From an uncultured Planctomycetota bacterium (GTDB lineage Bacteria > Planctomycetota > Planctomycetia > Gemmatales > Gemmataceae), in the NCBI GenBank assembly GCA_963849325.1, contig CAWKHF010000001.1, forward strand, positions 448,001 through 512,000: a stretch of DNA of 64,000 nucleotides, in the 5' to 3' direction. The notes beneath the pieces were generated by a model. That model was not told where the DNA came from, searched no databases, and was given only the letters and a program-made list of their open reading frames with translations. Shown one piece after another: positions 1 through 57,519 of the stretch. How positions within the stretch are numbered: the first letter of the stretch is position 1; every line of letters begins with the position of its first letter. The position numbers and the translations under genes were made by a program.

Positions 1-13
1 GCGAGTCAGGTGG

Positions 14-8175: not shown

Positions 8176-8450
8176 CGCTCGCGTTGCAAGCGGTGTATTT
8201 CACGCTCGTTAGAGCGTGCTCTGCGAGCAGGCTGAGGAATTGGAGGAACAGAGGAAGCAGAGGAAACAGTTCCTCATTCGTCAACTCCTGCCGGCGACAG
8301 ATGTTCGGCGACGCGAGCGGCTCGCGGGCCAAGCAAACAACGCATCTCCTCAATTGTCAAAGACCAGCGCCACGGAGACCGGGCGAACACGATTGCAGCA
8401 CCTTGGCGTTCGCGGCATCGATGCGAGAAGAACGGCGTGACCGACAGCGA
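8176..8450 (-). promoter_or_regulatory. CRISPR leader
   Basis: Non-repeat region between the last repeat and the cas6-like gene, at the 5' end of the array in handle orientation. Contains TCTTTGACAATTGA (minus strand, ~8349-8363) and the palindrome GCGAGCGGCTCGC (~8313-8325). Confidence 0.75.
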
Positions 8451-9431
8451 TCATTCGGTTGGGAGGAACAGGCCCAGACCGAAATGAGAGGCGTGGCCCA
8501 GACAAAGCGGCCCCGCCAACTCGCGGTCGAACTCCAGGCGGAACGCCGCCGTCGCTCGATTGGCCCCGTCGTCGCCCGGTTTGCGGCGGCCGCGACGGAA
8601 CTGAAGCGGCCGGAACGAACAGGTGCGGCCTACGTGATCCAAGACAGTATAGGCGGCCGATGCACCGGCCGCCAGGGTGGGTTGACGGCGGAGCCAGCGT
8701 TGGCTTTCTTCGGCAAGGACGCGGGCCGCGAAGTGCGGCCGGCCCGTGAGACCGTGACAGTCGGGCGGGTCTTTCTGACGGCCGCGTTTCTTGGGGCAGC
8801 GCGTGACGACAAACGGCGTGGCCGACTCCCAGACGCGGGCGGGACCAAACAGGCGACAGCGGAAATCCTCCGGCCGGCCCAGCCCCACCAGCAGCACCTG
8901 CAACGGGTCGCCCTCCCCCCAGGGCAGCCGCCGCACGGCTTGGAGGGCCGCCAGCTCGTCGGGGCCGAATCCCTCCGCGGCGTAGACGGTTACGTGATCG
9001 AGGCGGCTGGCGTCGTTCTCGGCCGTGGGCAGATAGTAGGCGTGGTCGTGGGAGTTCAGCGGCCGACCCGTTTCATCCTTTCCGGAAAACACCCGCGAGT
9101 AGAACTGCTGCGGATATCGCTTGGCGGCGTTTCCGTATCTGCGACGGTGCAGAAAGCGCTGAAAGCGATGCATGAGCACATGCCGAAACGCCTCGGCCAC
9201 TGGGAGGGTTTCGGTCACAAGTGGTAGCACCGGGCCGTCGAGCAGGAAGCGGGCGATCGTCATTAAGGCAGTGCCAGGTTTCTCGGTAACCACGACACGA
9301 AATGGGCGGTCATAGGGAACCGCTTCAAGTGTCGCGGAATCCAACGTCGGAACCACAATCGGTGTGATCCGATTGTCCGAGGCCTCTGTGTCAGGCCGCC
9401 GGCGACGCGAACCCCTTCTTGGCCTGCCCAT
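8451..9431 (-). CDS. csb2: Cas6-like crRNA processing RAMP, corresponding to the C-terminal half of type I-G Csb2
   Basis: Motifs FSGKD..GRPL..HDHAYYLP, LDHVTVYA..GF, WESATPFV and the terminal G-loop GPLCLGHASHFGLGLF. AAGGAG RBS before ATG 9431. ~326 aa, with no recognisable N-terminal Cas5 half. Confidence 0.85.
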   Translation of the reverse strand: MGRPRRGSRRRRPDTEASDNRITPIVVPTLDSATLEAVPYDRPFRVVVTEKPGTALMTIARFLLDGPVLPLVTETLPVAEAFRHVLMHRFQRFLHRRRYGNAAKRYPQQFYSRVFSGKDETGRPLNSHDHAYYLPTAENDASRLDHVTVYAAEGFGPDELAALQAVRRLPWGEGDPLQVLLVGLGRPEDFRCRLFGPARVWESATPFVVTRCPKKRGRQKDPPDCHGLTGRPHFAARVLAEESQRWLRRQPTLAAGASAAYTVLDHVGRTCSFRPLQFRRGRRKPGDDGANRATAAFRLEFDRELAGPLCLGHASHFGLGLFLPTE

Positions 9432-9433
9432 GC

Positions 9434-11766
9434 CTAGCTCCTTGTTCGTTTCCACCCTGTGCTGACATCATAAAGTTGAACGGCGAGGCTCATTGGGACA
9501 TGAACGATCTGTGATTCTTGCGACGCCTGGTCAATAGAGTAACCATATCGCTTGGGAACCTCAACGATCCGTTGCCCTAATTCAGGCTGCAGTTTCCGAA
9601 GCCGTCCCCGGCGCTGTCCAGGATCGGATAGCGCGTTCGCTTCCCGGAACTGCCGCCAAACGTCGGCGTCGGCAATGTCAACTTCGACGAAGTGCGCAAC
9701 CGCATCCTGACGTTCGTCGATGAGTCGAACCGCTTTGTCTTGGTCCTTTGCATCGATTCCTTCCCCACGGAGAGAGGCAAACTCCCACTGCTGAACCGCC
9801 TCCATGACCTTGTGAAAGGTGTCCGACCCGGTTCGGCTGGCGACGAGCCTGAAATATTCACCCACGCTCTCTTGGAGTCTTGGCTCGGGTACGGGCGTCC
9901 CTTGACCGGCAGCTCTTTCCAGAACCTCTCGCGGCACCCATCTCCTTGTTGCCATAGATCAGGTTGCCGGTATCTCCTTCCACTCTGACCAGGAAAACCT
10001 GGCCGCGGCGTCCCGTGCCGTGCCGGTTACACCGTCCGGCGGCCTGAACCACGGCGTCTAGGGGGGCCAGCGCTCGGAAAACCACGTCGAAGGACAGATC
10101 GACACCTGCCTCCACCACCTGAGTGGCGATGAGAAGATGCGGCCTACCGTGGCACTTTACGATCTGTTGTAAGATCTTCTTCCGGTCCAGCGGTCGCAAG
10201 TTTGTGGAAAGGTGAAAGACTGGATTATCGGAAACGCCGGGCAGCACCTTACCAAGGCGCATAGGTCGAGGGCTTCCTGGATGGTGTTCACGATGACAAG
10301 GCAAGACGGCTGCTTCGGGTCCGTTACCACATTGCGAATCCGATCAGCCAAGGCGACGAGGCTCACTGGCTGCCCCGTCTGCACATGGAGGTCGTAACGG
10401 TCGAATGCAACCGCCAGCGTTTCAGCCAAGGTCGGGCGCAGCTCGCTCACATCGGTTGCCTCGAAGATGGCCGGTTGGGTAGCCGTTACCAGCAGTACAT
10501 CGGTTCCCCATTGATCGCTCAGTGCTCGCAGCGCGGTGTTGATAAGCCGCCAGAACTTGGCGGGGATGGCTTGCACCTCGTCAAGGATTAAGATGGAACC
10601 AGCCAGGCGGGCAAATCGCCTCGTGTCGGCGACAGTTCCGTGGAACAGGGCGTTTACGACCTGGACGAACGTAGTGCAGATGATGTCGGCTCGCCATCCT
10701 TCGACCCAACTCCGAGCAAGCGACTGCTCGCCGCTCCGCGCCAGCTCGCCCGGCTCCGCGACGTGGTGGTGAACTGCCAGAGTGCTTTCGTCTGGCTCGT
10801 CATCTCCCCATATGCGGCGCAGCACAGACGCGTTCTGGTCGATGATGCTTGTAAACGGCAGCGCGTAGACGATCGGGCACGGGGGAAGGCCAGCGCCAAT
10901 GCGCGCCTCGCGACGCCGGAGCGCCCACCCCAGGGCCGCGAGGGTCTTCCCCGCCCCAGTGGGAACCGTCAAGCTCCATAGGTGGCCCGAGTCGAGCTGG
11001 TCGGAGGTTTGCCCGATCCACGGCGGCCTGATACACGTGTTCTCGTGCCTGAACGACACGCGGGTCGGCCGCTGGACCGAAGTTGGCGGCGGTTCGGAAC
11101 CGCTCCAAGTGGGCAATCGTGAATCGAAGGGGTGCTTTGAAGAGATCAGGTGCGAACCCTGTCGCGGAATCTCGATCTGCCTCAATCAACAGGCCGAACC
11201 AACGCAGCGCGTCCTGGAACCTCTTCATGGCGGCCAACCCGGATGGCCCTTGCCGAAAAGCGGTAGACGAGCTGCACCCGCAGCTTGGCCCATCGCAAGT
11301 CGAGGTCCGGCTTCTGGACCGGCTCGCCAAGACTTGCGGCAAGCCAGGTCGCCGCGCCTTCAAGATCCAGGGCTTGAAGTTGCTTCGCCCACAGGCCACG
11401 CGCCACATCGTCGGATGGGGGCAGTGATTCCAGCGCGTTCTTCAACCCCGTGTGGTGGTGCGCCACCATCAGATACGCCAAGACCGTTTGGTCTATGGTC
11501 AGGCCATGAGCGGCGACCTTGGGTAACAGGTGGTTAAGCAGCCAGACGGCCCCAAGGTGGGCGTGCTGCTTCAACCGGAGATCGCTGACAGGTTGACCCT
11601 TCAGGTAGTGCTGGAAGTGTTCTGTCCCTTTTGCCACGTCATGGAACAGGCCGGCGATCCGACCCAACCAGCCACAGGCGGTTAGCCGATTCGCCACGTC
11701 TTGAAGGTGGCCGGTCAGGGGCTTGCCTGGGTGCGATTCACAGAGCCGAAAAGCAGGTGCCATCAT
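9434..11766 (-). CDS. cas3: Cas3 HD nuclease-helicase (split by several apparent frameshifts)
   Basis: Across consecutive ORF pieces: N-terminal SHPGKPLTGHL..FHDVAK..HAHLG..HHTGL, Walker A VPTGAGKT, YALPFTSIIDQ, ILDEVQ, TATQP, ATQVVEAGVDLSF and QAAGRCNR. Confidence 0.93.
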
Positions 11767-12475
11767 CGCACCTCCAATACGTGCGCATGGTAGCCGTGAT
11801 CGAGCCGCCGGTCGTTTCAAGTAGGTACTCTTCGTACCGCTCCACCTGCCGCGTCGGCAGCATTTCGGCCGGCATGCGAATCCGCTGGTAGACGGCTTCC
11901 TCGTCCCAACGAATGTCCTGTAGATCCGCGGTGCGGATGGGCGATACAAAACGCTGATGCCCGGCCCCGTCGCGGACCTCCTCCGCCTGAACAGTTCGGA
12001 CCACATCCCCGAACCATGCGATCATCCATGCCAGACCGAGGCAAGGGGTGTAATTCGTCATGCCCCGGCGCAGGGTCGTCGCCAACCGCGAACCGAGTTC
12101 GGGATGGCTGAACCAAACCCGATACCGTGGCTCGCGGATGATCTCATACCGCATGATCGTATGCGGGTTCACCGACTTGGGCCGGAAGGTCTGGATGCCA
12201 AGCACGGTCGGCGTTCCCTTGGTGTCGAGAAGGTTGAGCGAAACGTGCCCGGTGCGCAGCGGCGCGAGCATCTGGAGGGCGAATATCGCCTGGGAATCCC
12301 GAAACTGCTCCAGGGAATCATTCTTCGGCAGCCCCAGCACCGCCCCGACGAGACCACAAAGCGCCGTTCGCGGCGGCGCCGGGAAGCTCAGCGCCGTCGT
12401 GATGGCGTACGGCCGCCGGAAGTGGGCCATGTCCGACAGCACATCGAAGACAATGAACTCGCGCGGCATGGTCAT
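11738..12475 (-). CDS. cas5: Cas5 (type I-B/Hmari-like)
   Basis: FDVLSDMAHFRRPYAITTALSFPAPPRTALCGLVGAVLG and YTPCLG; lies between cas7 and cas3. Confidence 0.93.
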   Translation of the reverse strand: MTMPREFIVFDVLSDMAHFRRPYAITTALSFPAPPRTALCGLVGAVLGLPKNDSLEQFRDSQAIFALQMLAPLRTGHVSLNLLDTKGTPTVLGIQTFRPKSVNPHTIMRYEIIREPRYRVWFSHPELGSRLATTLRRGMTNYTPCLGLAWMIAWFGDVVRTVQAEEVRDGAGHQRFVSPIRTADLQDIRWDEEAVYQRIRMPAEMLPTRQVERYEEYLLETTGGSITATMRTYWRCDDGTCFSAL

Positions 12476-13473
12476 TCCAGGTTTAGTGCTTCGGCCGGCA
12501 GGCCCAGGAAGATCCTGTCCGTCGGCTCCGAGGAAAAAGGCAAACGTTTGTCCCAGGCGTAGCGGACTCGTTCGATCCGCTCCTTCTTCCTGTCCAGGGC
12601 CGCCGCGAGTTCACCGAGTTGAAGCGCCACCTCGCGCACTTCGCGGATCTGCTCATCGCGGAGCGTCTGCCTACCTTCCTTCGCCGTTGCCGTGATGGTC
12701 AAGAACCGATCCAGCCGGCCGATGTACGCATTCGGTTCCTTGTATTCGATGACCAGCAGCAACAACGGACGCTGACCGATCTTGGATCGGCTGATGAGGT
12801 TTTTCGTCCCGTACCATATGCCTTTGTACAGTTCCTCGACATCCGCGTCCGTCAGTTTGGTCGTTGTCGCCGCTTGCTGGTTCACGATGCCGTAGAAGGC
12901 GATGAGGGCGTAGGGGAGGATGTACTCCTCGCGGAATGTCCTCTGCTGAGCGCCTTGACCTGACGCGAACGCACCGGTCCCCTTGATGAACCGTGGTTCG
13001 ACGCGGTGCAGGCTGGTACCCATTGCGAACTGAACCGGTCCTGTCAGCGTGACGCTGGAGTCTTTTTCATTTTTTTGGATTTTGGAAACCGGAATCGTGG
13101 CGCCGAAGAGCCGCACGTCGATGCACTCCTTGATGACGCCGGCCTGAATCAGGTCGCGCTTCTGTAAGACATTCGTGGCCTTTTCCCTGGCTTCCTTGGC
13201 GACCTTCTGGAAAAAGTCTTCCGCCCGGTCCTTCCCCTCTTGGATGGTGCCGTCCGGCTTCTCGATCTCCCGACAGAAGATCTCCTGCTTGCCGTAGTCA
13301 TGCAAGTAGTCGCGGATCGTGCGCTTCAGACGCACGTCGGACACTTTGGCCCGGCCGGTTTCCAGGTCCATGCGCGGCCGATTCTCGTCGTTGGGGTCGC
13401 CGTTGGGGTTGGCGTCCGTGATGTCGTAGACGAACAGAATCTCGCTGCGCCGGCTGACCGTCTCAGTCTTCAT
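12472..13473 (-). CDS. cas7: Cas7/Csh2 (type I-B)
   Basis: RSEILFVYDITDANPNGDP..NRPR, VSDVRLKRTIRDY, DVRLFG, SVTLTGPVQF, GTGAFAS and SRSKIGQRP. Confidence 0.95.
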   Translation of the reverse strand: MKTETVSRRSEILFVYDITDANPNGDPNDENRPRMDLETGRAKVSDVRLKRTIRDYLHDYGKQEIFCREIEKPDGTIQEGKDRAEDFFQKVAKEAREKATNVLQKRDLIQAGVIKECIDVRLFGATIPVSKIQKNEKDSSVTLTGPVQFAMGTSLHRVEPRFIKGTGAFASGQGAQQRTFREEYILPYALIAFYGIVNQQAATTTKLTDADVEELYKGIWYGTKNLISRSKIGQRPLLLLVIEYKEPNAYIGRLDRFLTITATAKEGRQTLRDEQIREVREVALQLGELAAALDRKKERIERVRYAWDKRLPFSSEPTDRIFLGLPAEALNLE

Positions 13474-15383
13474 GGATTCGTTTCCTCACTGGTTGCGGGT
13501 AAGGTTCCTTCGTCTTCCTGTTCCTTGGCGAGCCTAGATCGCAGGGCGTGCCCCAGGGCGAAGTAATAGGAGATGTCGTCCGGGCCCAATGTCCAGCGTT
13601 CCGCCGTCGCGGCCAAAGCGGAGGCAGCGCAGCTCAGCAATCCGCTGACGATGCGCTCCTTGTCGGGGCCATATGCCTTGGCTTTGTCCTTGGCGGCGAT
13701 GAACAATCGCTGAACGTCTGGTTGGTTCAAGCGGAAGCCCTTATACTTCCCCTCGAAGGGCGTCGATCCGCGCACCAGGCTCTGGATCGTCTCGATTCGT
13801 CCGCAGCACGCCCCGACCAGGAAGGCTGCCTGGGCAGCGGGGTCGGTACGAAGCCGGCTGGTTTCCGGCGCTTGCTGGAAGAAGTGGCGGACACGATCCG
13901 CCTGCTCGTTACCTCCGTAGTCCACTATCATAGTCGGCTGGCTCCTTTCGTTGTCTCCTCTTGTAAGTTCCTCAAAAAACAGAAGCGACCGGAAGAGATC
14001 GGCGAGCCTGAACGGCCAAGCCTTGCCCTCCAAGTAGTCTTCTTGAACCCAACGCATCCCGATCTCGACCATGCGGTCGGCGCGATGTGGTCGGATCTCC
14101 AAGGCTGGCGAGTGGCTGAAAGAAAGTCATCGTCGAAGGTGCTACCGCCGCGTGCCGCAGGATAGATGTTTCTGAAGCAGCCGAAGGTAAACCTCCCTTC
14201 GGTGAAGGTCTTTGGGCTCGGCGGTTGAAGCCAGGGATGACGATCAACCCGATCCTGCGCACGGAAGAGTTCCCGGAATCGGGACGGTAGTAAGCCGAAC
14301 ACGGTAGAGCGCTGGCCGGAACGACTGCGGGTCGGGTTGGTAAAAGAGCAGGTCGAGTTGTAGCCGGTTGTTCTCCTCCGCAATGATCTCGAACAGGTCG
14401 TCCTCCGCATCCGTGAGCCGTTTCGATGCCTTGCGATCCACACGAGCGCTGGCTAATCGGTTCAGGGATTGGTAGGTGTCGGTCGCTGCCAGCCGCACCG
14501 AGGCCGGCAACATCAGATACTTGAAGCCGTAGTAGTTGAAAGAGAGATCCCTTTTGATTCGTTCACCGGAGAAATCAACCTTGTCACAGCACTCGCGACA
14601 GGCGGGAAAGTTCCGCCAGGCGTCCAGCGCATCGAAACCTCCTGACACAGAGCCGGGTTTGTCCAGCGTGTAAACCTTGAACTGCTGGATTTGGAGCAGG
14701 CCAGATACCTCGGCATCCCGTCTGCCGCAGATACAGCACTGACCCACGCCCTTGACATCACCCCCTATGCCCTTCTTCTTTGATGCAGCTTCCGTCCCTT
14801 TGCGGACTAGCGCCTGCTGGAAGGCTTTGAAGTCACCAACCCATCGGGCCTCGCCTTCCGAAGGCCGCCAGGCCACCGAGAGGATCGCTGGTTTCGTCAG
14901 ATCGGGGTGGGCTTCCCGCAAGCGGATGAAGATGGCCGATCGAGGATCGCTGCCCGCTGACCCCTGTTTGTCCTTGGGAGACTGCAAACGGTCGCGCATG
15001 ACGGCAAGCGCCTCGCACTCGCATGTCGGTAGGTCTTCGCACTGCTCCAACGCTTCATTGATGCTGCGAGCAAGCCGGCTGAGTTTCTTGCCGATTTCCC
15101 CATCGGCCGTGTTCTCCTTGCCCTTCTTGACAGTCGCCATTCCGGTCGTCGGCGTCGCGTCCCACCCGTTCGGCGGTCCTGGTCGGTAGAGGCAGCGCAA
15201 ACGGCGACCCTCGTCGTATTCGTCCACCTGCACCCCCTCAAAGCCGTCGGATGAGAATACGAGCAGCAGGATTTCCTTGGTGCGAAATTTGGCCGACGGG
15301 TCGGCCGCATATTGGATCAGCTGGTCCTTGACCCCTTCTCGTTCGAGGTAGAACTGGCCGAGTTCGGCGAATTGATGTATCAC
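13470..15383 (-). CDS. cas8b: Cas8b/Csh1 (TM1802-like) large subunit, frameshifted near 14290 and 14100
   Basis: C.ICG Zn motif, FKVYTLDKPG..SGGF..AWRNFPAC.EC and C-terminal AAFLVG..Q...PF...YYFALG; lies immediately upstream of cas7. Confidence 0.88.
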
Positions 15384-15544
15384 CGGGTAGACCCTCTTGA
15401 TAGCCCGCGATTGTCGAGTCAGCCGCCACCCGCTTTACGGTCACCACGTCCTTGGCACTCACCTCCGTCGGTTGGCTGAGTTCTCACTTGGTCCATGCGC
15501 TTCGCGCACGAACGAACGATCTACAGCCGATCCTCGGTGAGGTG

Positions 15545-15550
15545 TATAAT
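15545..15550 (+). promoter_or_regulatory. Putative sigma70 -10 box for mini-array 1 / vapBC
   Basis: Perfect TATAAT 48 bp upstream of the mini-array in otherwise GC-rich DNA; no clear -35. Confidence 0.45.
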
Positions 15551-15598
15551 GTCCTACAGCCGGGCCCGCGAGCATACAAGGGCGGTAGCAGAAATCGC

Positions 15599-15710
15599 CT
15601 TCTCCACGGTCTTCGGGCCGTGGCCGCTTTGAAGCAGGCGTCTGCCAGTGGGACAGTTGACCGACCATAGTGAGTTCTCCACGGCCTTCGGGCCGTGGCC
15701 GCATTGACAG
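15599..15710 (+). CRISPR. Mini-array 1 (2 repeats, one 38-nt spacer), opposite orientation to the main array
   Basis: CTTCTCCACGGTCTTCGGGCCGTGGCCGCTTTGAAGC (15599-15635), spacer 15636-15673, GTTCTCCACGGCCTTCGGGCCGTGGCCGCATTGACAG (15674-15710). Confidence 0.93.
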
Positions 15711-15779
15711 GTGCTGCCGACCATCGCCCCTTTCTCTCCCGTACCGTCCGCCCGGTCAGGAGATTGCCGGAGACTGTCC

Positions 15780-16007
15780 ATGACCACCGTTTCCCTTTCG
15801 GAAGCTCAAGCCCATCTGCCGGAACTGTTGGAAAAAGTCGCGGCCGGTCAGGAGGTCGTCATCACGCGCGATGATACGCCGCTCGCCTTGATAACGCCCA
15901 TTTGCACGGCCAATCCGCAACCGCGGTTCGGCAGCTGCAAAGGAATGCTCTCCATCGTGAGTGATGATGAGGAACACCTGGAGCACTTCAAGGAGTACAT
16001 GCCTTGA
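15780..16007 (+). CDS. Phd/YefM-family antitoxin
   Basis: MTTVSLSEAQAHLPELLEKVAAGQEVVITR..P.A; overlaps the PIN toxin start. Confidence 0.88.
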   Translation: MTTVSLSEAQAHLPELLEKVAAGQEVVITRDDTPLALITPICTANPQPRFGSCKGMLSIVSDDEEHLEHFKEYMP

Positions 16008-16390
16008 GGCTCCTGCTCGATACGCACACGTTCCTCTGGTTTACGCTCGGCGACACCCAGTTGAGCCCCACAGCGCTGGCCCTCATCAATGATCCGGGGA
16101 ATGACAAGCTTATCAGCCCAGCCAGCTACTGGGAGATAGCCATCAAGGTCAGCATCAGGAAACTGGCCCTGAACCAGCCCTTCGAGGACTTCCTCGATCG
16201 CGGAATCCGGCAGAACGGCTTCAAAATTTTGCACATCGACCTGCGACACACGGCACGCGTGGTCACGTTGCCGTTCCACCACAAGGATCCGTTCGACCGT
16301 CTGCTCATCGCCCAAGCGTTGACCGAGGGCATCGCCATCGTGGGGGCTGACACGCTCTTCGATCAGTACGGCGCGACGCGGTTGTGGTAG
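16004..16390 (+). CDS. vapC: VapC PIN-domain toxin
   Basis: LLLDTHTFLW, SPASYWEIAIK and HHKDPFDRLLIAQA. Confidence 0.93.
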   Translation: MRLLLDTHTFLWFTLGDTQLSPTALALINDPGNDKLISPASYWEIAIKVSIRKLALNQPFEDFLDRGIRQNGFKILHIDLRHTARVVTLPFHHKDPFDRLLIAQALTEGIAIVGADTLFDQYGATRLW

Positions 16391-16408
16391 GGCAGATGTC
16401 GGGCCGTC

Positions 16409-16693
16409 TTACACCACCACAACCACATCCTTCGCATCGGCCGCCTCCGTCGGCCGGCCGAGCGCCTCGATCGCGTTCACGCACTTCGCGCACAGCGGGA
16501 TGAACAGCACCTGATCCTGCTCCAAGTTGATGAGATCATACAGCCGCGACCGCAAACGTACAAAGTCGGTAGCGGACAAGCGACACAAAAACACCGAATA
16601 TTGCTTGCGGTAGCCGAAGTCCTCGCACACCGTCGCCACCTTGCGCAGACGTTTCGGATCGCTGATGTCGTAGGCGACGAGGTAGCTATCCAA
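16409..16693 (-). CDS. cas2: Cas2
   Basis: [25 protein letters not shown], 94 aa. Confidence 0.96.
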
Positions 16694-16699
16694 GGATTA

Positions 16700-16734
16700 C
16701 CCCTCACCCTACCCTCTCCCCAAGGGGCGAGGGA
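16700..16734. repeat. REP-like palindrome (CCCTCACCCTACCCTCTCCC...GGGGCGAGGG)
   Basis: Intergenic hairpin between cas1 and cas2; a related hairpin lies at ~46319-46349. Confidence 0.55.
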
Positions 16735-16742
16735 CGATCGGC

Positions 16743-18462
16743 TCACCGCACCGTGAAGCCCGTGTACGCCGGCACCGAGCCGCGCACGTACGCGGCCAGC
16801 ATCCGCGCCTGCACCTCCAGCATCCGCGAATAGCTCATCTTGTAGCCGTACACCGGGTGCGTCACCACCGTCGCCTTCCGCTGCTCGTAGGCCTGGAAGA
16901 ACTTCCGCCGGCCCGAGTCCGTCAGCTGACACGCCTCGCGCCACACCAGGAAATCGTCCGGCGTCAGCATCTCGTTGTTGATCAGCGTCAGCACCACCGA
17001 GTCGGCGATCACCGGGCGGAACTCCTCCATCAGGTCCAGCGCCAGCGACGGCTTGCCGTGGCGGTTGGAGTGGAAGAAGCCCTTGTACGGGTCGAATCCC
17101 ACCGTGCAGACCGCCGCGAAGCAGTCCTTCGTCAGCATCGCGTAGGCGAACGACAAGCAGCGCGTTCACCGGGTCGCGCGGCGGGCGGCGGTTGCGCGTC
17201 GTGAACTCGAAGCCGCGGCCCGGCGGCTGCACCTGCAGGAAGCGGCCGAACTCGCCGAAGTACAGCGCCGCTCCCTGCCCCTCCAGCCCCAACACCGTCT
17301 CCAGCGGACGCGGCACTGTCCAACCGCCGGATCAGGTCCGCCAGACCCCGCGCGGCCGGCTCGTCGCTGCCGCGGTCGCCGTCGCCGCGCAGGCTGCGCA
17401 TCAGCAGCGCCCGCTGGTTGGTGAGCTTGGCCCGCACCACCGCCTTCGACAGCGTCAGGCACTCCGCGGCGTCGGCGAAGCGGCGGAACTGCGCCTCGCG
17501 CAGCCCGACGTTCTTGCGCTCGGCCGGCGCGAACGTGCCGATGAACCGGCCGTAGCCCGTCAGGTAGGCCACCGGGATCTCGTTCGTCACCAGCGTCTCC
17601 AGCGCCTGCGTCGAAACCTGCACGTTGCCGAAGACCACCACCTGCCGGATCGCGTGCATCGGCACCCGCGTCACCTCCTGGCCGTCCTTGCGGACGACCA
17701 GATGCTCGCTGCGCTTGCCGACGTGGCTGCCCGGCTCCTGCACGTACAGCACCGCGCCGTCGTCGGACTGCGGGATCACCCGCGTCAGGCCGGGCGGCGG
17801 CGAGGCCGTTTCCTCGGCGGCCGGCGGCAGGCCGATCTGGTAGAGCGTCTCCTCCGGCAGACAGACCGGGGCCAGCGAGCAGCCGAAACAGCGGTGCCGC
17901 AGCTCCGCCGGCAGCGGGTCCGGCGGGGCGTCCAGGGCAGACAGCCGCCGGCATTCGTCGATGGCCGTGCGCGTCTTCGCCCGCAGCTCGTCGCGTGAAG
18001 CGGACCTCGACGCGCTCGCGCGTGCCGGCGTAGAACTGGAAGCCGCGCTGCACCGGCGCGCCGAACGCTTCTTCCATCAGCAGCGCCTGGCCGCACAGCT
18101 GCACGGCGTCGTTGTCCCAGGTCGTCGGCCGGCCGTCGTCGTCGCGCGGGGCGGAGCCGTGCTTGGTCTCCACCGGGTAGGACACGCCGTCCTTCTCCTC
18201 GATCACGTCGAGGACGCCGCTGATGCCGAGCGTCTCCGACGACAGGTGGACGCCGCGACTGCGGTTTGCATCGCCTTCCTTGCGCGTCTTGTTGGCCAGT
18301 TCCGGCTCATCGACGCGGCGGTGATCGAACAGGCCGGCCTCGACGTGTTCGTTGGTGCGGCATCACGGCATCGACGTACTGGAGGTAGTAGAGGCGCGGG
18401 CAGTAGGTGACCTGGTTCAGTGCGCGCAGGGGGATCATCTGGGCGTCGGTCGTTGCGGTCAT
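16743..18462 (-). CDS. cas1: Cas4-Cas1 fusion (type I-G-like), frameshifted in this sequence
   Basis: Cas4 part: [30 protein letters not shown] and a C-terminal Cys cluster. Cas1 part: [48 protein letters not shown] and LEVQAR. Confidence 0.93.
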
Positions 18463-18490
18463 GATTCACCTCAGAGAGTCCGAGTAAGGG

Positions 18491-20407
18491 TTAATCCACC
18501 ATCCGCAGCTTGCAAGGCGCCGGATCCATAGCCACCAGGAGCGGCCGAGAAAGGTGCGTGAAACTGACCACCGCCTGACCCGGCGCCAGTCCCGGGATGC
18601 GGCTCCACAGCGACTCGTCGATGCCGCTGATGGTATGTCGCAGGTTCATTAACACCTGCGGGTCGGTCAGCTTGTGCAGCACAAAGTTGTTGCACAGCGA
18701 CAAAACCTGACGGGGCAAGTGCGCGGGTAACTGTGTCACGAACACCAGCCCGAGCCAGCGCTTCCGGCCGCGCTTGGCGATGCGGGCCACTTGCTGGAAC
18801 AGCGTGTCCATCCGCTCGATGCGATCCGCACTGAGGAACTCGTGCGCTTCCTCAATGATGAGCAGGACGCGAGGAACCGGCGGGTCCTGCCCCGCGGCCT
18901 TCGCCTTCTCGTAGCGGCGGTAGGCATTTTCTTGGGCTTTCTGAACGCCGCGCATCAGATCGGCGATCGCAAAATTCGCCAGTTCCGTCATGCCGGTGTC
19001 CGAAAGGTCCACCACGGAAACCTGACCCGGTGCGATGAGCTGGTCGTAGTTCAGCGGCGGAGCGCCGCGTTTTTGCAAATGGCGATCAAACACTTTCAAG
19101 CGATTCAGCCGCCAGAGCAGGCTCTTGACCTTGCCCCACGAGGACGCACTGCTCAGTTCCTTTGCCTTGATGTGTTTCTCCAACGCCGCGCGGCCGGCGT
19201 CGGTACGGAGCACGGCGTTGTATGGCTCGAAGCTCGTTTTGCTCACCGTCGCCAGACACTTGCCGACCACGTCGAGCAGCAGCGACAGCGTCAGGCGGGG
19301 CCAGCCGCGCTCGAACTCGTCGATGCGGAGCAGCAGCTGTTCCTGCTTGTCCACTTCTTCCTTCGGCTTGTCCCGTTGTGGGAAAATGCCGAGGTCGCGC
19401 ATTATCGCCTTGGTGATTTCGTAGGCCGGAAGAAACCGCTCAGATTGAGCATCGTTCATCCCCAGCATTTCGATAACCGCGTGCGGAGAAAGCGCGGCAA
19501 ACTGGAGCGAGAACTCGCTGCGGTTTGGATGGCGCGGGTTCGTGGACTCACGACCGACAAGGTGGTACAGCCGCATGGAGTCCGCGGGGATGCCGGCTGG
19601 CGACAGGCCACGCTCCTGCAAGGCGTCCAGCATCGTGCGGTGATCGGCCGGTTCGTGCAAGTGCGTGTATTCGCCCTCGACATCCAGCAGAATGACGGTC
19701 ATCCCCACGGCCTGAGCTTGCTGGATCAAGCCCGCCACCGTCGTCGATTTGCCGCCGCCCGTTGTACCGAGGACCGCGACGTGGCGCGGCAGCACGGCCT
19801 TCTTGTCGGACGGTACGTTGACGATCACCTCGCTCGCCCCAACCACGGAACCCAGCCGGATGTCGCCATCGGTGTGCAGGACTGCGGCTACCTCCGATTG
19901 CGTCAGGGCAACGACGGGGCTATTGGGCAGCGGTCGCAGGCGCGGCGGAACCAGCGAGCCGTTCTTGAGTTCCTCGCCCAGAATCGAGACCGTCGCGCGG
20001 CCGTGGTAGGGCGGCAGATAGACGCCGCCGCGCGCCGTCACGGTGACGAGCAAATGCGAGTCGGCCCGTAGCGTGTCCGGTTCAGCAAAGGGACCGGCGG
20101 TCACGATGCCCAGGTACTTGCGCCCGTCGCAGCTCTTGATGCGCACCAGGGATTGCGACGGCGCCTGTTGGGCGTGATCGCGCGGCAGCAGGACCGTCAC
20201 GCTGCCGTCTTCGCTGCCGGGCAGGTCGAACATGGTCGCGCCGATGGCGCCTTCCCGATCCGGGTCGGGAGCCAACTCGCCGCCGGCACGGGTTACGTCG
20301 GCTTGGACCTGCTGGAGCAGATCCTCCGGCGGACGGGCGATGCCCAGGTCTTCCTGGCCGTTGTCGTGTGCCGTCCTAGGCGTTGGTCGCGTTGTGGGTG
20401 CAGGCAT
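18491..20407 (-). CDS. herA: HerA/FtsK-family ATPase (DUF87)
   Basis: N-terminal HAS-barrel-like region, HVAVLGTTGGGKS, ILLDVEGEY, LLIIEEAHEF and RIAKRGRKRWLGLVFVTQLP. Confidence 0.9.
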   Translation of the reverse strand: MPAPTTRPTPRTAHDNGQEDLGIARPPEDLLQQVQADVTRAGGELAPDPDREGAIGATMFDLPGSEDGSVTVLLPRDHAQQAPSQSLVRIKSCDGRKYLGIVTAGPFAEPDTLRADSHLLVTVTARGGVYLPPYHGRATVSILGEELKNGSLVPPRLRPLPNSPVVALTQSEVAAVLHTDGDIRLGSVVGASEVIVNVPSDKKAVLPRHVAVLGTTGGGKSTTVAGLIQQAQAVGMTVILLDVEGEYTHLHEPADHRTMLDALQERGLSPAGIPADSMRLYHLVGRESTNPRHPNRSEFSLQFAALSPHAVIEMLGMNDAQSERFLPAYEITKAIMRDLGIFPQRDKPKEEVDKQEQLLLRIDEFERGWPRLTLSLLLDVVGKCLATVSKTSFEPYNAVLRTDAGRAALEKHIKAKELSSASSWGKVKSLLWRLNRLKVFDRHLQKRGAPPLNYDQLIAPGQVSVVDLSDTGMTELANFAIADLMRGVQKAQENAYRRYEKAKAAGQDPPVPRVLLIIEEAHEFLSADRIERMDTLFQQVARIAKRGRKRWLGLVFVTQLPAHLPRQVLSLCNNFVLHKLTDPQVLMNLRHTISGIDESLWSRIPGLAPGQAVVSFTHLSRPLLVAMDPAPCKLRMVD

Positions 20408-20423
20408 AGCTGTTCTCCTCTCC

Positions 20424-21698
20424 TCAATCGTGACGAGTCGTGCGTTCGCTGAAGTAGCGCCAGGGCGCACCGGCCGCAGCGTAGGCCGTTTCGGTCAGGT
20501 GGTGCAGACTGCCGCCGAACACCGAATCGCAAACGTGATGGGCCAAGTCGATCAGCAGCGGGAAGCCGCGCTCTTCTTGGAACATGCTGTCGGCCAGCAC
20601 GATATGGGCGGCGAAGTGAGCGTGGTCCACATGGGCGTAGAAGAGCTGCGCTGGAGCCAGGATCGAGGCGCGGTACAGGCCAACCACCACTTGCGACGCG
20701 ACACGCTCGATGAAGCGTGGTATCCATTCCGGCGGGGACAGCCGCTCGCCGTCCCAGAATAAGTCCCCGGAGGATTCCATCGTGAATCGGCGTTGTTGGA
20801 ACCAGCCTTCCAGACGCGGAGCCAAGTTGCCGAGGATGGCGTAATGCAGCGGAGGCAGCGCCTGGCCAATGGTCAGCGCCAGCAGTTCACGGGGCTCACT
20901 GGCCACGAAGACGAATTTGCCGTAACCCTCGATCAGTTCGCGCATCATCCCGGTCGCGGCGACCATCAATTCCAGGATGTCGGCGCCAGTCAGCAATTCG
21001 TAAGTGATCGGATTGCCGTGGCCCATCCGCCAAACCGCCCTCGATTGGCGGAGGAGAATGGCCCGTTCGGCGTAATCCATGACAGCCTTCCTCGCCAATT
21101 CGCCGAGTTGGTCGCTCGGCGTTCCGTGGTTGAGGGCGGCTCGTTGGTCGCGGCGTCGGAGCAGCTCTAATACCTCATTAAGGTCCGCGGGGCCGCGTTG
21201 CCGCAGGTCGCGGCGGAAGAGTCGCTGCTGCCATGTGCCTTGATCGCCAGCGTAGGATACCAGCGAAACGCCGACCTGGTAGATCGTCAGAGGCAGCGTA
21301 GCATGTACCTGAACCGTCCCGTCACACGCTTCCACACCGCCGTTAAATAACAGGCCGCGATGAATGAGGGCGAGAATGTCCATGTTCGCGGTGAAGACGC
21401 CGCAGCCCGGTGCCGAAGCTGGGTCGATAAGCTTTGGGAAAACTTCGCTGCGAATGCACCGTTGGTACTCGTCCTCCTGGGCGATGGCCTCACGCACTTC
21501 GCGCTCGATACGCGGATACTCCTGCGCCAGGTCTCCTCCCAGCCGCCATGTGTTCACATCGAGAACCCGTTGCAACTCCTCACCGAAGCTCGCTCGAAAC
21601 TCGGCGGCGGTTGCCGGTTCCGAAGGCAGGCGCGTCGGCGACCGTGCCGCGGCCGACACGGGGGATGCTGCATCGTCTCGGGATGTGGTGGTTGCCAT
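20424..21698 (-). CDS. nurA: NurA-like (RNase H fold) nuclease
   Basis: VEACDGT resembles the NurA AVDGS motif and GFPLLIDLAH resembles GYP..L..AH; directly upstream of herA. Confidence 0.72.
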   Translation of the reverse strand: MATTTSRDDAASPVSAAARSPTRLPSEPATAAEFRASFGEELQRVLDVNTWRLGGDLAQEYPRIEREVREAIAQEDEYQRCIRSEVFPKLIDPASAPGCGVFTANMDILALIHRGLLFNGGVEACDGTVQVHATLPLTIYQVGVSLVSYAGDQGTWQQRLFRRDLRQRGPADLNEVLELLRRRDQRAALNHGTPSDQLGELARKAVMDYAERAILLRQSRAVWRMGHGNPITYELLTGADILELMVAATGMMRELIEGYGKFVFVASEPRELLALTIGQALPPLHYAILGNLAPRLEGWFQQRRFTMESSGDLFWDGERLSPPEWIPRFIERVASQVVVGLYRASILAPAQLFYAHVDHAHFAAHIVLADSMFQEERGFPLLIDLAHHVCDSVFGGSLHHLTETAYAAAGAPWRYFSERTTRHD

Positions 21699-21780
21699 CG
21701 TTCGTTCTCCCACGCGCTTTGCCGGCACCCTCGCGCCTGACTATACTCTCCTGGATTAAAGTGGTCGCGCCCGTCCCTTG

Positions 21781-21807
21781 TCCGTGGCCCAGTTCTTTGA
21801 CAATTGA
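21781..21807 (+). promoter_or_regulatory. Leader-derived motif upstream of mini-array 2
   Basis: TCCGTGGCCCAGTTCTTTGACAATTGA matches the main leader (minus strand TCCGTGGCGCTGGTCTTTGACAATTGA) at 24/27 positions. Confidence 0.75.
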
Positions 21808-21834
21808 ACCGCATCGCCTTGCCACCTCGACGAG

Positions 21835-21946
21835 GTTCTCCACGTTCTTATGAACGTGGCCGCATTGAAGATCCCTCACTACTTCCCGACATGCGCGACA
21901 AAGTTCGACATTCTCCACGGTCTCATGGCTGTGGCCGCATTGAAGT
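21835..21946 (+). CRISPR. Mini-array 2 (2 diverged repeats, one 38-nt spacer)
   Basis: GTTCTCCACGTTCTTATGAACGTGGCCGCATTGAAGA (21835-21871), spacer 21872-21909, ATTCTCCACGGTCTCATGGCTGTGGCCGCATTGAAGT (21910-21946). Confidence 0.88.
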
Positions 21947-21984
21947 GTAAGCAATCCCGCAAGCTCGCCGTGGCAAGCCAACGC

Positions 21985-22719
21985 TCAGGAGCGCAGTCGC
22001 TGGAGCAACGGATCTTCCCGGACGGGCGGTAAGAGGAGACGGCTATAGTCCTTAGCCTGCTCCTGCGGCAGACCGAAATCGGCTTGCAACACTTCCGCAA
22101 GTCGGATTCTTCCTTCCACACCCGAAATCGACCCGGCTCGCGCCCATACGTCGGCGGCAGGCGCCAGCAGTTCGTAGGCGACCTGATCGGCTTCCTCTTC
22201 GGCCAGCGTGATGGTCGCGTGAAGCACTTCCCGGCGCGGGCCACGCCGCATCAAATGCAGATGAAAACCGAGGGAAATGCTTTTCAAGAGCGCATGAAGA
22301 CACTCCTCTGGCGTCGGCGGGCGCTCCCCGTCCAGGACTTCCACGATTCGTTTCCCCAAGTAGCGGCACGCCCGCCGCCGAGGATGCCAGTAATGTCGCA
22401 GAAAATGAGCCAACTCGTGTGCCAGTGAGAAACGCTGGTCGTCATCGCTGTCGGTTCCGTCGAGAAAGATCAGTCCATGACCGAAATGGGCCGCCAGGCA
22501 AGCCCGCAACGGACGATCCGCTTCGTCGCAACGACAGGCGATCCCGTTCCGGCACAACCAGTCACGGACACTATCAAGCCGTAAATGCGGCAGCAAGACG
22601 ATGGATACCGGCAGCGCCCGGACTATGGGCCGGCGTAATTCACGAGGGAAGGATTCGTCCAAGCCCGCAGCCGCCCAGAACTCACGGATCAATTCCGCGA
22701 TCCACAGCGGCACTCTCAT
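21985..22719 (-). CDS. ImmA/IrrE-family Zn metallopeptidase
   Basis: QRFSLAHELAHF (HExxH) followed by EEEADQVAYELLAP. Confidence 0.85.
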   Translation of the reverse strand: MRVPLWIAELIREFWAAAGLDESFPRELRRPIVRALPVSIVLLPHLRLDSVRDWLCRNGIACRCDEADRPLRACLAAHFGHGLIFLDGTDSDDDQRFSLAHELAHFLRHYWHPRRRACRYLGKRIVEVLDGERPPTPEECLHALLKSISLGFHLHLMRRGPRREVLHATITLAEEEADQVAYELLAPAADVWARAGSISGVEGRIRLAEVLQADFGLPQEQAKDYSRLLLPPVREDPLLQRLRS

Positions 22720-23099
22720 GACTTCGCTCCTTGCGGCGGAGTGTCTTCCGTCGTATTGTCTCGCGCCGCTAACAGGAATCCTTTCTCGCTGTTTTGGCCG
22801 CCGGCGCCAATCCGAAGCCGCAACAGGCTGTGACCCCGCCTGGCAACCTCGGCCAAGACCTCAGCATCGAGCGAGAAGCGCTGCGCGATCTTTTCGACAT
22901 CTTGCCAGAACAGAGGGGCCTGCGCTCGGGGCATCCGGCACAGGCGCAGATGGGTGAGGATTCCCTCGGAACAACCGAGCCGGATGGCCAATCCGGCATC
23001 CTCAAGCTGTTCGCTTCGGGCATACTCCGCCAGCGCGCTGGCGAAAAAATCGGGAGCATCGGCGACACGCAGGGCCAGGTGTTCCAGGTACGGATTCAT
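22716..23099 (-). CDS. Small hypothetical protein (possible HTH / anti-sigma / peptidase substrate)
   Basis: 127 aa, ATGA overlaps with both neighbours; contains LAIRLGCSEGILTHLRLCRMP and LLAARD. Confidence 0.7.
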   Translation of the reverse strand: MNPYLEHLALRVADAPDFFASALAEYARSEQLEDAGLAIRLGCSEGILTHLRLCRMPRAQAPLFWQDVEKIAQRFSLDAEVLAEVARRGHSLLRLRIGAGGQNSEKGFLLAARDNTTEDTPPQGAKS

Positions 23100-23731
23100 G
23101 CTTTTCTCCCGGCTCGCTCCAGCATCTTCTTTAACCGATCCTTGTTTCGCTTCACCTGCCGGAATTGCTCTTTCGCAGGCAGGTGCAACAAACCGTAGAG
23201 TTCGGCGAAGATTTTGGTCCGGCGTTCCTTCCGCAAAATCAAATCCAGCGCGCGGGAGTCGGTTTCGGACAAACCTTGGCAGACGGAATTTGAGATGGAG
23301 TTCATCGCGCTCTCGTCTTCCTCAGCCACTCGCATCGGGAGTGACGGATCGTCATGGCGTCCCAGATACTTCCCGGCCTCCTGCGAAAGTTCGACACTTT
23401 TCCACGAAACCCGGCCTTTGTTGTGTCTCCGTTCTTTATCGAGAAGGTTGCGCAAGTCTCCGCGGGCTGACATGCGCAGGTACACTTCCAGGGTCTGCCG
23501 TTCCGGAGAGTACGACCGCGGATTACGAATCAAAGCCAGCAGGGCATCCTCCGCAGCCTCGATGCGGACATCCGGAGGCACGCTCGCGTCGGTTTTGGCC
23601 AACCAGGCGACGAGCGGTTCCAGGTAGGCGTCAGCCAGATCATTCGGGGCAGTTGGATCATCAGCCAGGAGGCGCTGATGAATTTCAAGCGCGTTCGGTT
23701 GCCTGGGTGTTAAGGCGGTAGGACGGGCCAT
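23096..23731 (-). CDS. Divergent ECF/sigma70-like RNA polymerase sigma factor
   Basis: Region 2-like EAAEDALLALIRNPRSYSPERQTLEVYLRMSARGDLRNLLDKERR and a C-terminal region 4-like HTH (FAELYGL..VKRNKDRLKKML). Confidence 0.7.
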   Translation of the reverse strand: MARPTALTPRQPNALEIHQRLLADDPTAPNDLADAYLEPLVAWLAKTDASVPPDVRIEAAEDALLALIRNPRSYSPERQTLEVYLRMSARGDLRNLLDKERRHNKGRVSWKSVELSQEAGKYLGRHDDPSLPMRVAEEDESAMNSISNSVCQGLSETDSRALDLILRKERRTKIFAELYGLLHLPAKEQFRQVKRNKDRLKKMLERAGRKA

Positions 23732-23929
23732 GTTCTACAGTCCTGCGGATCGGTGTCGGGGCAGTGCTCAAGCAGCTTGGTCACCTGCCGGAACTTGGGC
23801 AGTATAAATCAAGTCACAGCTTAACGCGCAGGACCGGCGTATCAAGCACAAGTGGCTGAATTATCCCTACGTTGGCGCGACCTTATCGACCGAGCAAACC
23901 TATCACCAATCGCTGGACAATCGGCATCC

Positions 23930-24170
23930 GTGACCGCACCTTGGGCTCCAGGCCGGAAAGGCGGGGCGATGGAGCGGGGCTTCTCCGGGATGGTGAGCGA
24001 CACCAGGTCCAGTTGGCCCAGCCGGTCCAACTTGAGGAAGGAGCGAATCAACGGAAGCTTCAAATCATCCAGCTCGGCGTGATGGTTGATCCGGTCGTCG
24101 AACGGCACCGTGGCGGTCAGGGCCATCAGCTCGCGCGGCTCGCCGTTCCGCGCGTCGAGACTGTCCACAT
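23930..24170 (-). pseudogene. Internally deleted remnant of an AlbA/Schlafen ATP-binding (RecG-C-like) regulator
   Basis: ATVPFDDRI...LDDLKLPLIRSFL is fused directly to a C-terminal-type LVSLTIPEKPRS motif; family assignment is from memory of motifs. Confidence 0.45.
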
Positions 24171-49660: not shown

Positions 49661-49899
49661 GGTGCGTACCTCCTACGACGATGGGCTGGTGACGGGTCGG
49701 TGTCAGCCGACCACGATTGGACATTGGGTTGTCGGAAAGTACGAGTTTGCGGGGATGATCCTATCAGTCCAATCGATGGAAGGCAACGATTTTTGGCTCG
49801 GTTAAGAAAATGCGAAAATGAGAAAACGCAACACTCGCGCCGGACGTGGTGCCGGCGTCTGGACGGGGGCCGTTTCGTTCTGGCGCTGGTTTGATTTCC

Positions 49900-49956
49900 C
49901 GAGCCGCGAGCGTCAGCGAGCGGGAACGGCATCGCTCGCTGACGCTTGCGGCTCGG
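49900..49956. repeat. REP-like palindrome (GAGCCGCGAGCGTCAGCGAGCG...CGCTCGCTGACGCTTGCGGCTC)
   Basis: Intergenic inverted repeat; related half copies at ~53332 and ~57304. Confidence 0.7.
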
Positions 49957-50051
49957 GAAAGACTGCGCAGGAAGCGGCCCGCGAACGAATCCGCTCGCGG
50001 GCCGGCTAACGAGGACCGACTTCGCGAAGACAACCCCTTGTCGAGCTACGT

Positions 50052-53132
<3,081 letters not shown>

Positions 53133-53406
53133 GGTACAGACCTCCTACGACGCTGTAGTGACAACGAGTCGGCACTCGCCGACTTCCGGGAGCCGCTCAC
53201 TGTAAGAAGTACGGACGGGCAAGTATGATCCTTACGACAAAAAGGACAGAATGCCATTTTATTTTGTCACATTAGAGATTTCTAATGTGCATCGAAGCGC
53301 GCCGTTCCGTTCTGACGGTGGTTCGGTTTTCCGAGCCACGAGCATCAGCGAGCGGGAAGCGGCCCACGAGCGGAGGCGCTCGCGGGCCGACTGGCGAGGC
53401 TCGGCT

Positions 53407-56400: not shown

Positions 56401-57103
56401 GTTGGTCTCGATGTCGCCGCTGGAGTCGAGGTTGAGCGTGGTGGCGAAAATCTGGTAATTGCCGCTATTGGTGTCGCCGCTGGTCAAGTTGGTGGCGTTG
56501 CTCTGGTAGGCGACGACCAATTGGCCGTTGCTGTTCTCGGCTGATGCTGGGCGTTTGCACGGGCGCATTGGCGGGCTTGCCGTCCGTGCCGAGGCTGACC
56601 AGGTAGGTCTGGCCCAGTTGCATGTCGCGCACGAACACTTCCTCGCCGCCGCTGCCATTGCTCGTCAGGTCGGTGGCATCGCTGACGAAGGCGACATAGC
56701 GGCCATTGGACGTGACGACCGGGTCGTCGGCGAAGGCGCCGCCGCCGACGTCGCCCGTGCCGGTGCTGTTGATGCTGACCAGGCTGGTCGTGCCGAAGGC
56801 CAGGTCGCGCCGATAGACGTCGCTTCCGCCGTTGATGGTGACGCCGTTGACCAGGTTGGTGGCGCTGCTGGTGAAGACTTCGTACTGGCCGTTGACGTTG
56901 ATCGAACCCGGTGCGGTGGACGAAGGCGCATTGCCCATCGTCGTTCCCGTCGGATCGACGCTGACCGGCAGCGTGGCGGAAGGCAGCGTCCGGTCCTCCA
57001 GGCTTTCCAGACGAGGACGGAAGTCCGCCCGCGATGCCCGCCGTTGGCGGCGGGAGACTTGGGACGGACACGGGAAGAGGGAAGCGATCCAGCGGGGCAT
57101 CAT
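53407..57103 (-). CDS. Secreted TolB-like beta-propeller protein with PT linker (frameshift ~56540)
   Basis: [13 protein letters not shown] and repeated P.IS.DG..VAF.S.ATNL; C-terminal domain shared with 47297-49660. Confidence 0.85.
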
Positions 57104-57497: not shown

Positions 57498-57519
57498 AAG
57501 ATTGTCGCTGGATCATGCA

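Follow-up and report, generated by a model that had tools for sequence, protein, structure and literature searches.

A candidate CreR-type mini-array with a vapBC cargo, possibly orphaned by an effector-module swap, in a planctomycetotal CRISPR-cas locus

Results

Organization of mini-array 1 and the adjoining vapBC genes

The DNA analysed here is a stretch of 64,000 nucleotides (nt), referred to as the window, from an uncultured Planctomycetota bacterium (contig CAWKHF010000001.1 of assembly GCA_963849325.1, positions 448,001 to 512,000). It carries a locus of CRISPR repeats and cas genes, in which a two-repeat array, mini-array 1, stands between cas2 and cas8b on the plus strand, divergent from cas8b, and is followed by a vapBC toxin-antitoxin (TA) pair. 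Repeat 1 (R1, 15599-15635) matches the 37-nt consensus of the main array at 35 of 37 positions, spacer S1 (15636-15673) is 38 nt long, and repeat 2 (R2, 15674-15710) matches the consensus at 33 of 37 positions; all three are read on the plus strand. The length of S1 falls within the 31-43 nt range of the main-array spacers (n=243 extracted). The 3' handle of R1 is TTTGAAGC (7/8). R2 has an intact hairpin and keeps 28 of its first 29 nt, and its last 8 nt are degenerate, ending in ATTGACAG vs ATTGAAGC (5/8). When the 26-nt repeat core was searched with up to three mismatches, the window gave 72 matches, whereas 100 shuffles led to an expectation of 0.00; just two of the 72 were on the plus strand, both in mini-array 1.

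A leader of 69 nt (15711-15779, plus strand) separates R2 from vapB (15780-16007, plus strand), which encodes a Phd/YefM-family antitoxin of 75 amino acids (PhdYeFM_antitox, E 6.4e-9). The following gene, vapC (16004-16390, plus strand), encodes a PIN-domain toxin of 128 amino acids (PIN, E 1.3e-13) and is convergent with cas2. The two genes overlap by 4 nt (16004-16007), a layout consistent with that of a type II VapBC pair. The original prediction, made from the letters of this DNA, had placed a repeat-spacer-repeat on the plus strand between the adaptation and effector modules, divergent from cas8b, with the start codon of an antitoxin gene about 70 bp further on. The coordinates and the two repeat scores bear this out, and the ATG of vapB lies at 15780, 69 nt beyond R2. 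The TATAAT sequence that it had pointed out upstream of the array is present at 15545-15550, but sits within a decayed copy of cas2. Similarly, the inverted repeat said to flank R1 exists (GCAGA, 15588-15592; CGCCT, 15596-15600; AGGCG, 15636-15640; TCTGC, 15641-15645), but it comprises only 5+5 bp with a 3-nt bulge and does not form in the minimum-free-energy fold of 15575-15725. Most of its left half falls inside the decayed cas2 copy, and the final two bases of that half belong to R1. Two further candidates were rejected: a nine-bp inverted repeat bracketing the entire mini-array in the fold (p ~0.1 by a rough estimate), and a second, deleted copy of S1 downstream of R2, whose score was reached by 1027 of 3000 shuffles and exceeded by control spacers.

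Mini-array 1 has the layout of a CreR- or CreA-type mini-CRISPR, namely two repeats around one spacer beside a cas operon. It also has the asymmetric repeat conservation of that type, with the 8-nt 5' handle kept in R1 and the last 8 nt lost in R2. A canonical, adaptation-competent array would have a leader homologous to that of its system and variable spacers. Mini-array 1 has a single spacer, a cas2 remnant lies upstream of R1, and no leader motif in common with the main array was found there. An Rfam scan of 15300-16500 returned two sub-threshold snoRNA matches only, which were taken as chance.

Mini-arrays and their targets in related loci

A metagenome scan with a Cas4/Cas1 alignment yielded 80 loci; in 31 of them the sequence runs on downstream of cas4/cas1 for at least 1500 nt. 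Of these 31, 6 have a mini-array within 3 kb (L025, L030, L032, L065, L068, and L077), one has a full array (L063), and the others showed no mini-array at the thresholds used. In the six loci and in G009, a genome of the same genus as the present one, the mini-array lies between cas2 and the effector operon on the strand opposite to the cas genes; the spacers of L025 and G009 are the same. L031 and L080 carry a mini-array upstream of the adaptation operon. Repeat pairs from a generic scan at L056 and L095 proved to be coding-like DNA and a 75-nt tandem duplication, not mini-arrays.

Targets were scored over the first 18 nt of each spacer minus positions 6, 12, and 18, which are the positions flipped out by Cascade in type I systems; 15 positions were thus compared, with 300 shuffles as controls. 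Targets matching at 15/15 and flanked by TTC as the protospacer-adjacent motif (PAM) were found in L032, L068, and G009/L017, and 0 of 300 shuffles reached this score in any of the three. Mismatches in the first 18 spacer nt of these three, if any, fall only at positions 6, 12, and 18. The targets of L030 (14/15, TAC), L080 (14/15, TTA), and L065 (13/15, TTA) were reached by 2, 1, and 6 of 300 shuffles, respectively. L077 (11/15, 275/300 shuffles) and L031, of which 2.2 kb of locus was available (11/15, 70/300 shuffles), gave chance-level matches with no flank.

G009 has type I-G effectors, i.e., a Cas3 with a C-terminal HD domain, GSU0053, and GSU0054, and its mini-array has the same relative position and strand as mini-array 1. 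Its first repeat is reduced to the hairpin plus CCGCATTGAAGT, and its second is nearly intact, ending in ATTGTTAG. The spacer, which begins with TACGCGACGAATTGGCGT, has its target on the opposite strand, approximately 75 nt upstream of repeat 1; the three mismatches within the first 18 nt are exactly at positions 6, 12, and 18. This target lies a few bases past the expected start of a predicted σ70-like promoter (TTGACA-18-TAAGAT, 10/12) that points into a small open reading frame (ORF) and cas3g. Predicted σ70-like promoters facing the effector operon were also found in L032 (TTGACT-16-TAGAAT) and L068 (TTGACA-16-TATGAT), with the target just downstream in both. In all three loci the PAM lies 12-20 nt downstream of the −10 hexamer, and the promoters match 10 or 11 of the 12 consensus positions. 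The small ORF before cas3g encodes 62-79 amino acids in L017 (9439-9657, minus), L032 (9256-9480, plus), and L068 (3017-3205, plus). It has no Pfam match and looks conserved by eye in the translations, and the target lies 18-59 nt upstream of its start in the type I-G relatives.

Repeat 1 retains the 3' handle ATTGAAG in all eight relatives examined and repeat 2 in two of the eight, a pattern of decay that fits a gene for a single RNA. The repeat asymmetry and the PAM-flanked partial targets at effector promoters together indicate that these mini-arrays are of the CreR design, in which Cas autorepression would be exerted through a partial match at the effector promoter. Repression itself we infer from the position of the targets. 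The general proposal that mini-array 1 is a regulatory mini-array of the CreA/CreR kind, and not an ordinary array, is thus supported by descent, through same-position counterparts with PAM-flanked, seed-proximal partial targets, but in this genome no target was found.

Search for a target of S1

The original prediction had called for a genome-wide search for PAM-flanked seed matches to the spacer. No such match above chance was obtained in the window or in the 8.16-Mb assembly, where 12-13-nt seeds occurred at chance level. In CreTA- and CrePA-type pairs the adjacent toxin gene's promoter carries a CreA target. No such target was recognized in 15340-15800, where the best matches of S1 were 8/10; four sites reach this score, which is thus at chance level, and none has TTC. 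The S1 pattern had 0 matches in viral contigs and 0 in metagenome contigs. In scans that also covered all the related loci collected, the two best matches elsewhere, at 31875 (13/15, non-TTC flank, within a 396-amino-acid ORF) and at L050:9765 (13/15 with TTC, within cas3g), were rejected as chance because both lie inside coding regions.

S1 resembles the spacer of L068, with a global score of 7.0 vs a maximum of 4.5 among 111 control spacers. It also weakly resembles DNA located 47-77 nt upstream of vapB in G003, another genome of the genus; the score was reached by 18 of 5000 shuffles and equalled by 1 of 111 controls.

The cas2 remnant and the exchange of effector modules

The 215 bp between cas8b and R1 contain no leader and are occupied largely by a decayed copy of the 3' approximately 60% of cas2 (15441-15597, minus strand), whose truncated 5' end abuts R1. 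The copy was recognized by tblastn (E 9e-5) and by DNA alignment to the window's own cas2 (score 96). It sits where G009, L032, and L068 have the promoter and the target. A similar cas2 fragment is present in G003 upstream of the TA region (L011 11124-11293).

The effector module of the window (cas8b-cas7-cas5-cas3) is I-B-like, not I-G. L012 (= G129), a contig of a metagenome-assembled genome (MAG) from the same family of Planctomycetota, is colinear with the window over cas4/cas1-cas2 and cas8b-cas7-cas5-cas3. There, cas2 is followed after 60 bp by cas8b, without vapBC and without a mini-array. No mini-array was found within 6 kb of the cas8b relatives in the three genome loci L012-L014.

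G003 has the 15778-21710 block (vapBC-cas2-cas4/cas1-herA-g424) in common with the window at 79% identity. The four genes that it carries between cas2/vapBC and the array had no tblastn match in the window, and the effectors differ; we take its 902-amino-acid gene to be cas3g by size and position. The orthologous vapBC of G003 lacks an intact mini-array and is preceded by a solo repeat-like element and a small ORF upstream of vapB, presumably a remnant of a DUF104-like antitoxin gene. No target was found for the "spacer" following this solo repeat. A global alignment of R1-S1-R2 to the solo repeat and small ORF placed the R2 match in an apparently conserved coding motif and was not regarded as homology.

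In several genomes of the genus, solo CRISPR repeats precede unrelated genes by 8 to approximately 150 nt: C12:38172 of the present genome (G000, plus), L018:7913 (minus), L019:8819 (minus), L020:8193 (minus), and L011 about 11330-11369 (plus). In some of them, by reading, the stem changes preserve pairing. The genes that follow were labeled, from reading their translations, as a zinc-ribbon membrane protein, a putative caspase-like protein, and a putative response regulator. Such solo repeats may be Cas6 sites in 5' untranslated regions (UTRs).

The vapBC leader and the cargo slot

No terminator-like or σ70-like site turned up in a scan of 15200-16500, a region that takes in the leader between R2 and vapB. 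Inspection of vapBC homologues elsewhere in the family showed a −10-like motif near the ATG in most of them; the leader here and that of L032 have none. The absence of these sites between R2 and vapB makes it plausible that mini-array 1 and vapBC are co-transcribed from upstream of R1. Cleavage of the vapBC leader by Cas6, at both repeats of such a co-transcript, is likewise plausible.

L032 is the closest architectural match to the present locus. Its mini-array is followed after 56 nt by vapB, vapC, and a convergent cas2, an orthologous arrangement; its vapBC (Pfam Phd/YefM and PIN) has 83.7% nucleotide identity to 15759-16408, and its spacer targets the effector promoter despite the vapBC cargo. 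The cargo is different in the other loci: DUF433 and a PIN-like DUF5615 in G009 and L025, a ParE-like gene and others in L065, DUF5678 and an aspartyl protease in L077, and one gene without family assignment in L030; L068 has none and the mini-array is kept. Where present, the cargo is always co-oriented with the mini-array. Cascade-guided repression of vapBC, which the original prediction had suggested, is not supported by these comparisons: the targets of the relatives are at the effector promoter, the cargo is interchangeable, and S1 has no PAM-flanked seed match above chance. We read vapBC as cargo of mini-array 1, possibly co-transcribed with it.

Mini-array 2 and the host locus

A looser scan revealed a second mini-array, mini-array 2 (21835-21946, plus strand), with two repeats of 31/37 each and a 38-nt spacer, S2. 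It is divergent from the g424-herA-cas4/cas1-cas2 operon, its stem changes keep pairing by reading, and its upstream DNA has the motif TCTTTGACAATTGA in common with the main leader. S2 is homologous to a 48-nt DNA element between an M78-like gene and g424 in G003 (score 19 vs a control maximum of 10; 0/1000 shuffles reach it), and L022 and L026 have this 5'-UTR element too, where S2 matches it at 13/15; in L026 the flank is TTC. In the window itself the site, TTC-TCCCACGCGCTTTGCCG, which starts from 21708 beside the g424 start, matches at 9/15. The homology of S2 to these g424 5'-UTR elements and the 9/15 score of its own site suggest that mini-array 2 may regulate the adaptation operon in the manner of CreR, with a target that has since drifted.

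The main CRISPR array occupies 1-8175 of the window on the minus strand (first repeat, 8139-8175) and continues past the window start; at least 253 repeats are present on contig C1 over approximately 21 kb (C1:435192-456175). Its 37-nt repeat is GTTCTCCACGGTCTTCGGGCCGTGGCCGCATTGAAGC, and several repeat variants that are one or two loop bases apart occur in it. The following genes are all on the minus strand: a cas6-like gene that resembles the C-terminal part of Csb2 (8451-9455), an interrupted cas3 (about 9443-11763), intact cas5b (11738-12475) and cas7b (12472-13473), cas8b of the TM1802 family (13470-15383), with three in-frame stops in this assembly, intact cas2 (16409-16693), an interrupted cas4/cas1 fusion (16746-18462), and intact herA (HerA-like ATPase, 18491-20470) and g424 (424-amino-acid protein of no known family, 20424-21698). 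The last two lie upstream of cas4/cas1-cas2 on the same strand, are conserved together with these genes in G003, and are conserved by nucleotide similarity in G009, L032, and L065.

Both cas3 and cas4/cas1 are in five pieces in different frames. The four breaks of cas4/cas1 are single-base insertions relative to G003, none of them within a homopolymer. Together, cas3, cas8b, and cas4/cas1 have about ten frame breaks or stops; cas7, cas5, cas2, herA, g424, and vapBC are intact. The assembly comprises 8.16 Mb in 14 contigs at 84.7% completeness, and so few contigs at such completeness often accompany long-read indel errors. The breaks are either real decay or assembly indels. Array spacer s91 matches its own genome at 34/35 positions (C6:235120-235154; sole mismatch, position 18) with a TTC flank, as in the targets of G009, L032, and L068. 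This protospacer is the only near-perfect one found for the array of this genome, and s91 is a potential self-target; the breaks, if real, would fit such a near-perfect self-target.

Adjacent to the locus, the window also encodes, on the minus strand at 21985-23731, an M78/IrrE-like peptidase, a 127-amino-acid ORF, and a protein with a weak σ70 region 2 match. L012 has three ORFs of similar sizes beside its locus, on the strand opposite to the cas genes, which we take to be the same trio. Long tracts of GC-rich repeats with a period of 9-18 nt, at about 47400-62200 and to either side of 50-60 kb, are probably coding sequence for glycine-rich repeat proteins.

Discussion

The anatomy of mini-array 1, its synteny, the targets of its relatives, and the lack of a target in this genome were all observed in silico. 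On this basis we lean, with somewhat better than even confidence, toward reading mini-array 1 as a gene of CreR type that came from a type I-G-like locus and was orphaned by an effector swap, with vapBC as the cargo behind it. As a degenerate one-spacer CRISPR inherited from such a locus, it would yield a single CRISPR RNA (crRNA)-like RNA. In the relatives, the corresponding RNA would guide Cascade to the TTC-flanked partial site just downstream of the divergent effector promoter, and Cas would repress its own expression; a variable cargo slot would lie behind the mini-array, occupied here by vapBC. We infer the order of events in the swap, as well as co-transcription with vapBC, as follows. 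The CreR-vapBC unit of the I-G-like locus would have been retained, and recombination would then have put a cas2 remnant and an I-B-like module, of the cas2-cas8b... type seen in L012, in the place of the adjacent promoter, target, and effectors. With the promoter-plus-target segment and the I-G effectors replaced, mini-array 1 would be left orphaned, without a recognizable target. It may still supply a transcript carrying vapBC that is cut by Cas6 at both repeats.

Several observations weigh against this reading. Membership of mini-array 1 in the CreR type rests on the relatives, and the PAM-flanked partial target is absent here; in 8201-24000 the best non-self match of S1 was 12/15, a score also obtained with 157 of 300 shuffles. 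No significant similarity was seen between S1 and the L032 spacer, for which 14 of 111 controls did as well. With repeats this close to the consensus, mini-array 1 could be young. The promoter calls in the relatives are consensus matches only. Finally, cas8b, cas3, and cas4/cas1 are interrupted, and the system may not work, unless these are assembly indel errors.

An alternative that we consider unlikely is that selection has acted on the repeats as places for Cas6 to cut the vapBC mRNA within its 5' leader, which would tie expression of the TA pair to Cas6 and make the spacer irrelevant. The lack of a terminator-like or σ70-like site in the scanned region, the −10-like motif that most homologues have and that vapBC lacks here and in L032, and the solo repeats in 5'-UTR-like positions of unrelated genes in the genus are consistent with it. 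However, one repeat would suffice for this purpose, L068 keeps its mini-array without cargo, and the significant PAM-flanked targets of the clearest relatives' spacers point to a guide function.

It is similarly improbable that mini-array 1 is an ordinary small array or a recombination relic, with a normal immune spacer or without function. This would agree with its nearly consensus repeats, the absence of an S1 target, the interrupted cas genes, and its position at a recombination junction beside the cas2 remnant. On the other hand, S1 patterns matched nothing in the viral and metagenome contigs, the DNA upstream is not homologous to the main leader, and the position, strand, and asymmetric repeat decay match those of the targeted mini-arrays of the relatives.

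Addiction of the CreA/CrePA kind, in which the mini-array RNA and Cascade would repress the vapBC promoter and loss or inhibition of Cascade would free the PIN toxin, appears quite doubtful: S1 has no target above chance near vapBC or elsewhere in the window or genome, relief of repression would increase the antitoxin along with the toxin, the relatives have exchangeable cargo or none, the orthologous vapBC of G003 lacks an intact mini-array, and the predicted promoter of the G009 mini-array lies approximately 36 nt from the target without flanking it. In its favour, the relatives have their target in the interval that separates the effector operon from the divergent unit of mini-array and cargo, and S1 is weakly similar to G003 DNA upstream of vapB. 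According to the available parts of the respective papers, one CreA target can repress two divergent promoters flanking it (10.1101/2023.03.10.532045), TA genes are enriched between mini-arrays and cas genes in types I-B, I-E, I-F1, and I-D, and mini-array regulation of cargo TA genes is predicted, with targets upstream of the cargo genes (Shmakov 2023, PMC10120712).

The locus, with the orphaned CreR-type gene that we favour, would extend CreR-type Cas autoregulation with a TA-rich cargo slot to I-G-like loci in Planctomycetota-related soil and freshwater bacteria. G009, L032, and L068 constitute three clean natural test cases, in which the promoter, the PAM, and the 18-nt match can be read from the DNA. 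The present genome would be an apparent natural knock-out, in which the regulator was kept and the target removed by the effector-module swap, and thus bears on the gain and loss of such circuits and on the dependence of vapBC on the mini-array for transcription. A bolder proposal, to which we give little credence, is that in this I-G/I-B lineage CreR and cargo form one transcription unit, that the type II TA pair is expressed only as Cas6-processed tails of a Cas-regulating RNA, and that the repeats mark the breakpoints of effector-module exchange. If true, TA dosage would be tied to the status of Cas6 and Cascade, giving an addiction or anti-anti-CRISPR device built from a protein TA pair.

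Among known systems, the CreTA system of Li et al., from 2021, reportedly has a toxin RNA that is directly repressed by Cascade-CreA, without a protein antitoxin. As in CreTA and CrePA, a crRNA-like RNA is encoded here inside the cas locus and paired with a toxin gene; unlike in these systems, what lies beside it is a complete type II VapBC pair, and a target was not found. In CrePA, the protein toxin CreP is directly repressed by Cascade-CreA without a protein antitoxin, as the accessible portion of its description states (10.1101/2024.01.05.574328). The resemblance to CreR is closer. CreR mini-CRISPRs are known in types I-B, I-E, and V-A, and creA and creR have the same asymmetric repeat conservation, as given in the available text (10.1101/2023.03.10.532045). 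Like CreR, mini-array 1 is a degenerate two-repeat mini-CRISPR beside an effector operon, in which repeat 1 keeps the 5' handle and repeat 2 keeps the 3'-handle part. A partial match of the spacer to a PAM-flanked effector-promoter site exists in the relatives only. The present locus differs from CreR in that no target was found, in its lineage, which is I-G-like with an I-B-like effector swapped in, in its source, a Planctomycetota MAG, and in being described from sequence.

Mainly for type I-D, mini-arrays with a variable, TA-rich cargo behind them have been portrayed as lying in hotspots of gene shuffling in the part of Shmakov 2023 that was available (PMC10120712). Mini-arrays with a TA pair next to them are therefore of a known kind, and the present locus is one more CreR-type mini-array with TA cargo. 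As in those loci, mini-array 1 heads a variable slot for TA and other cargo inside a CRISPR-cas locus, and the relatives have other cargo, no cargo (L068), or cas2 directly beside cas8b (L012). It differs from them in subtype and phylum, and in that the targets, absent here, lie in the relatives at the effector promoter.

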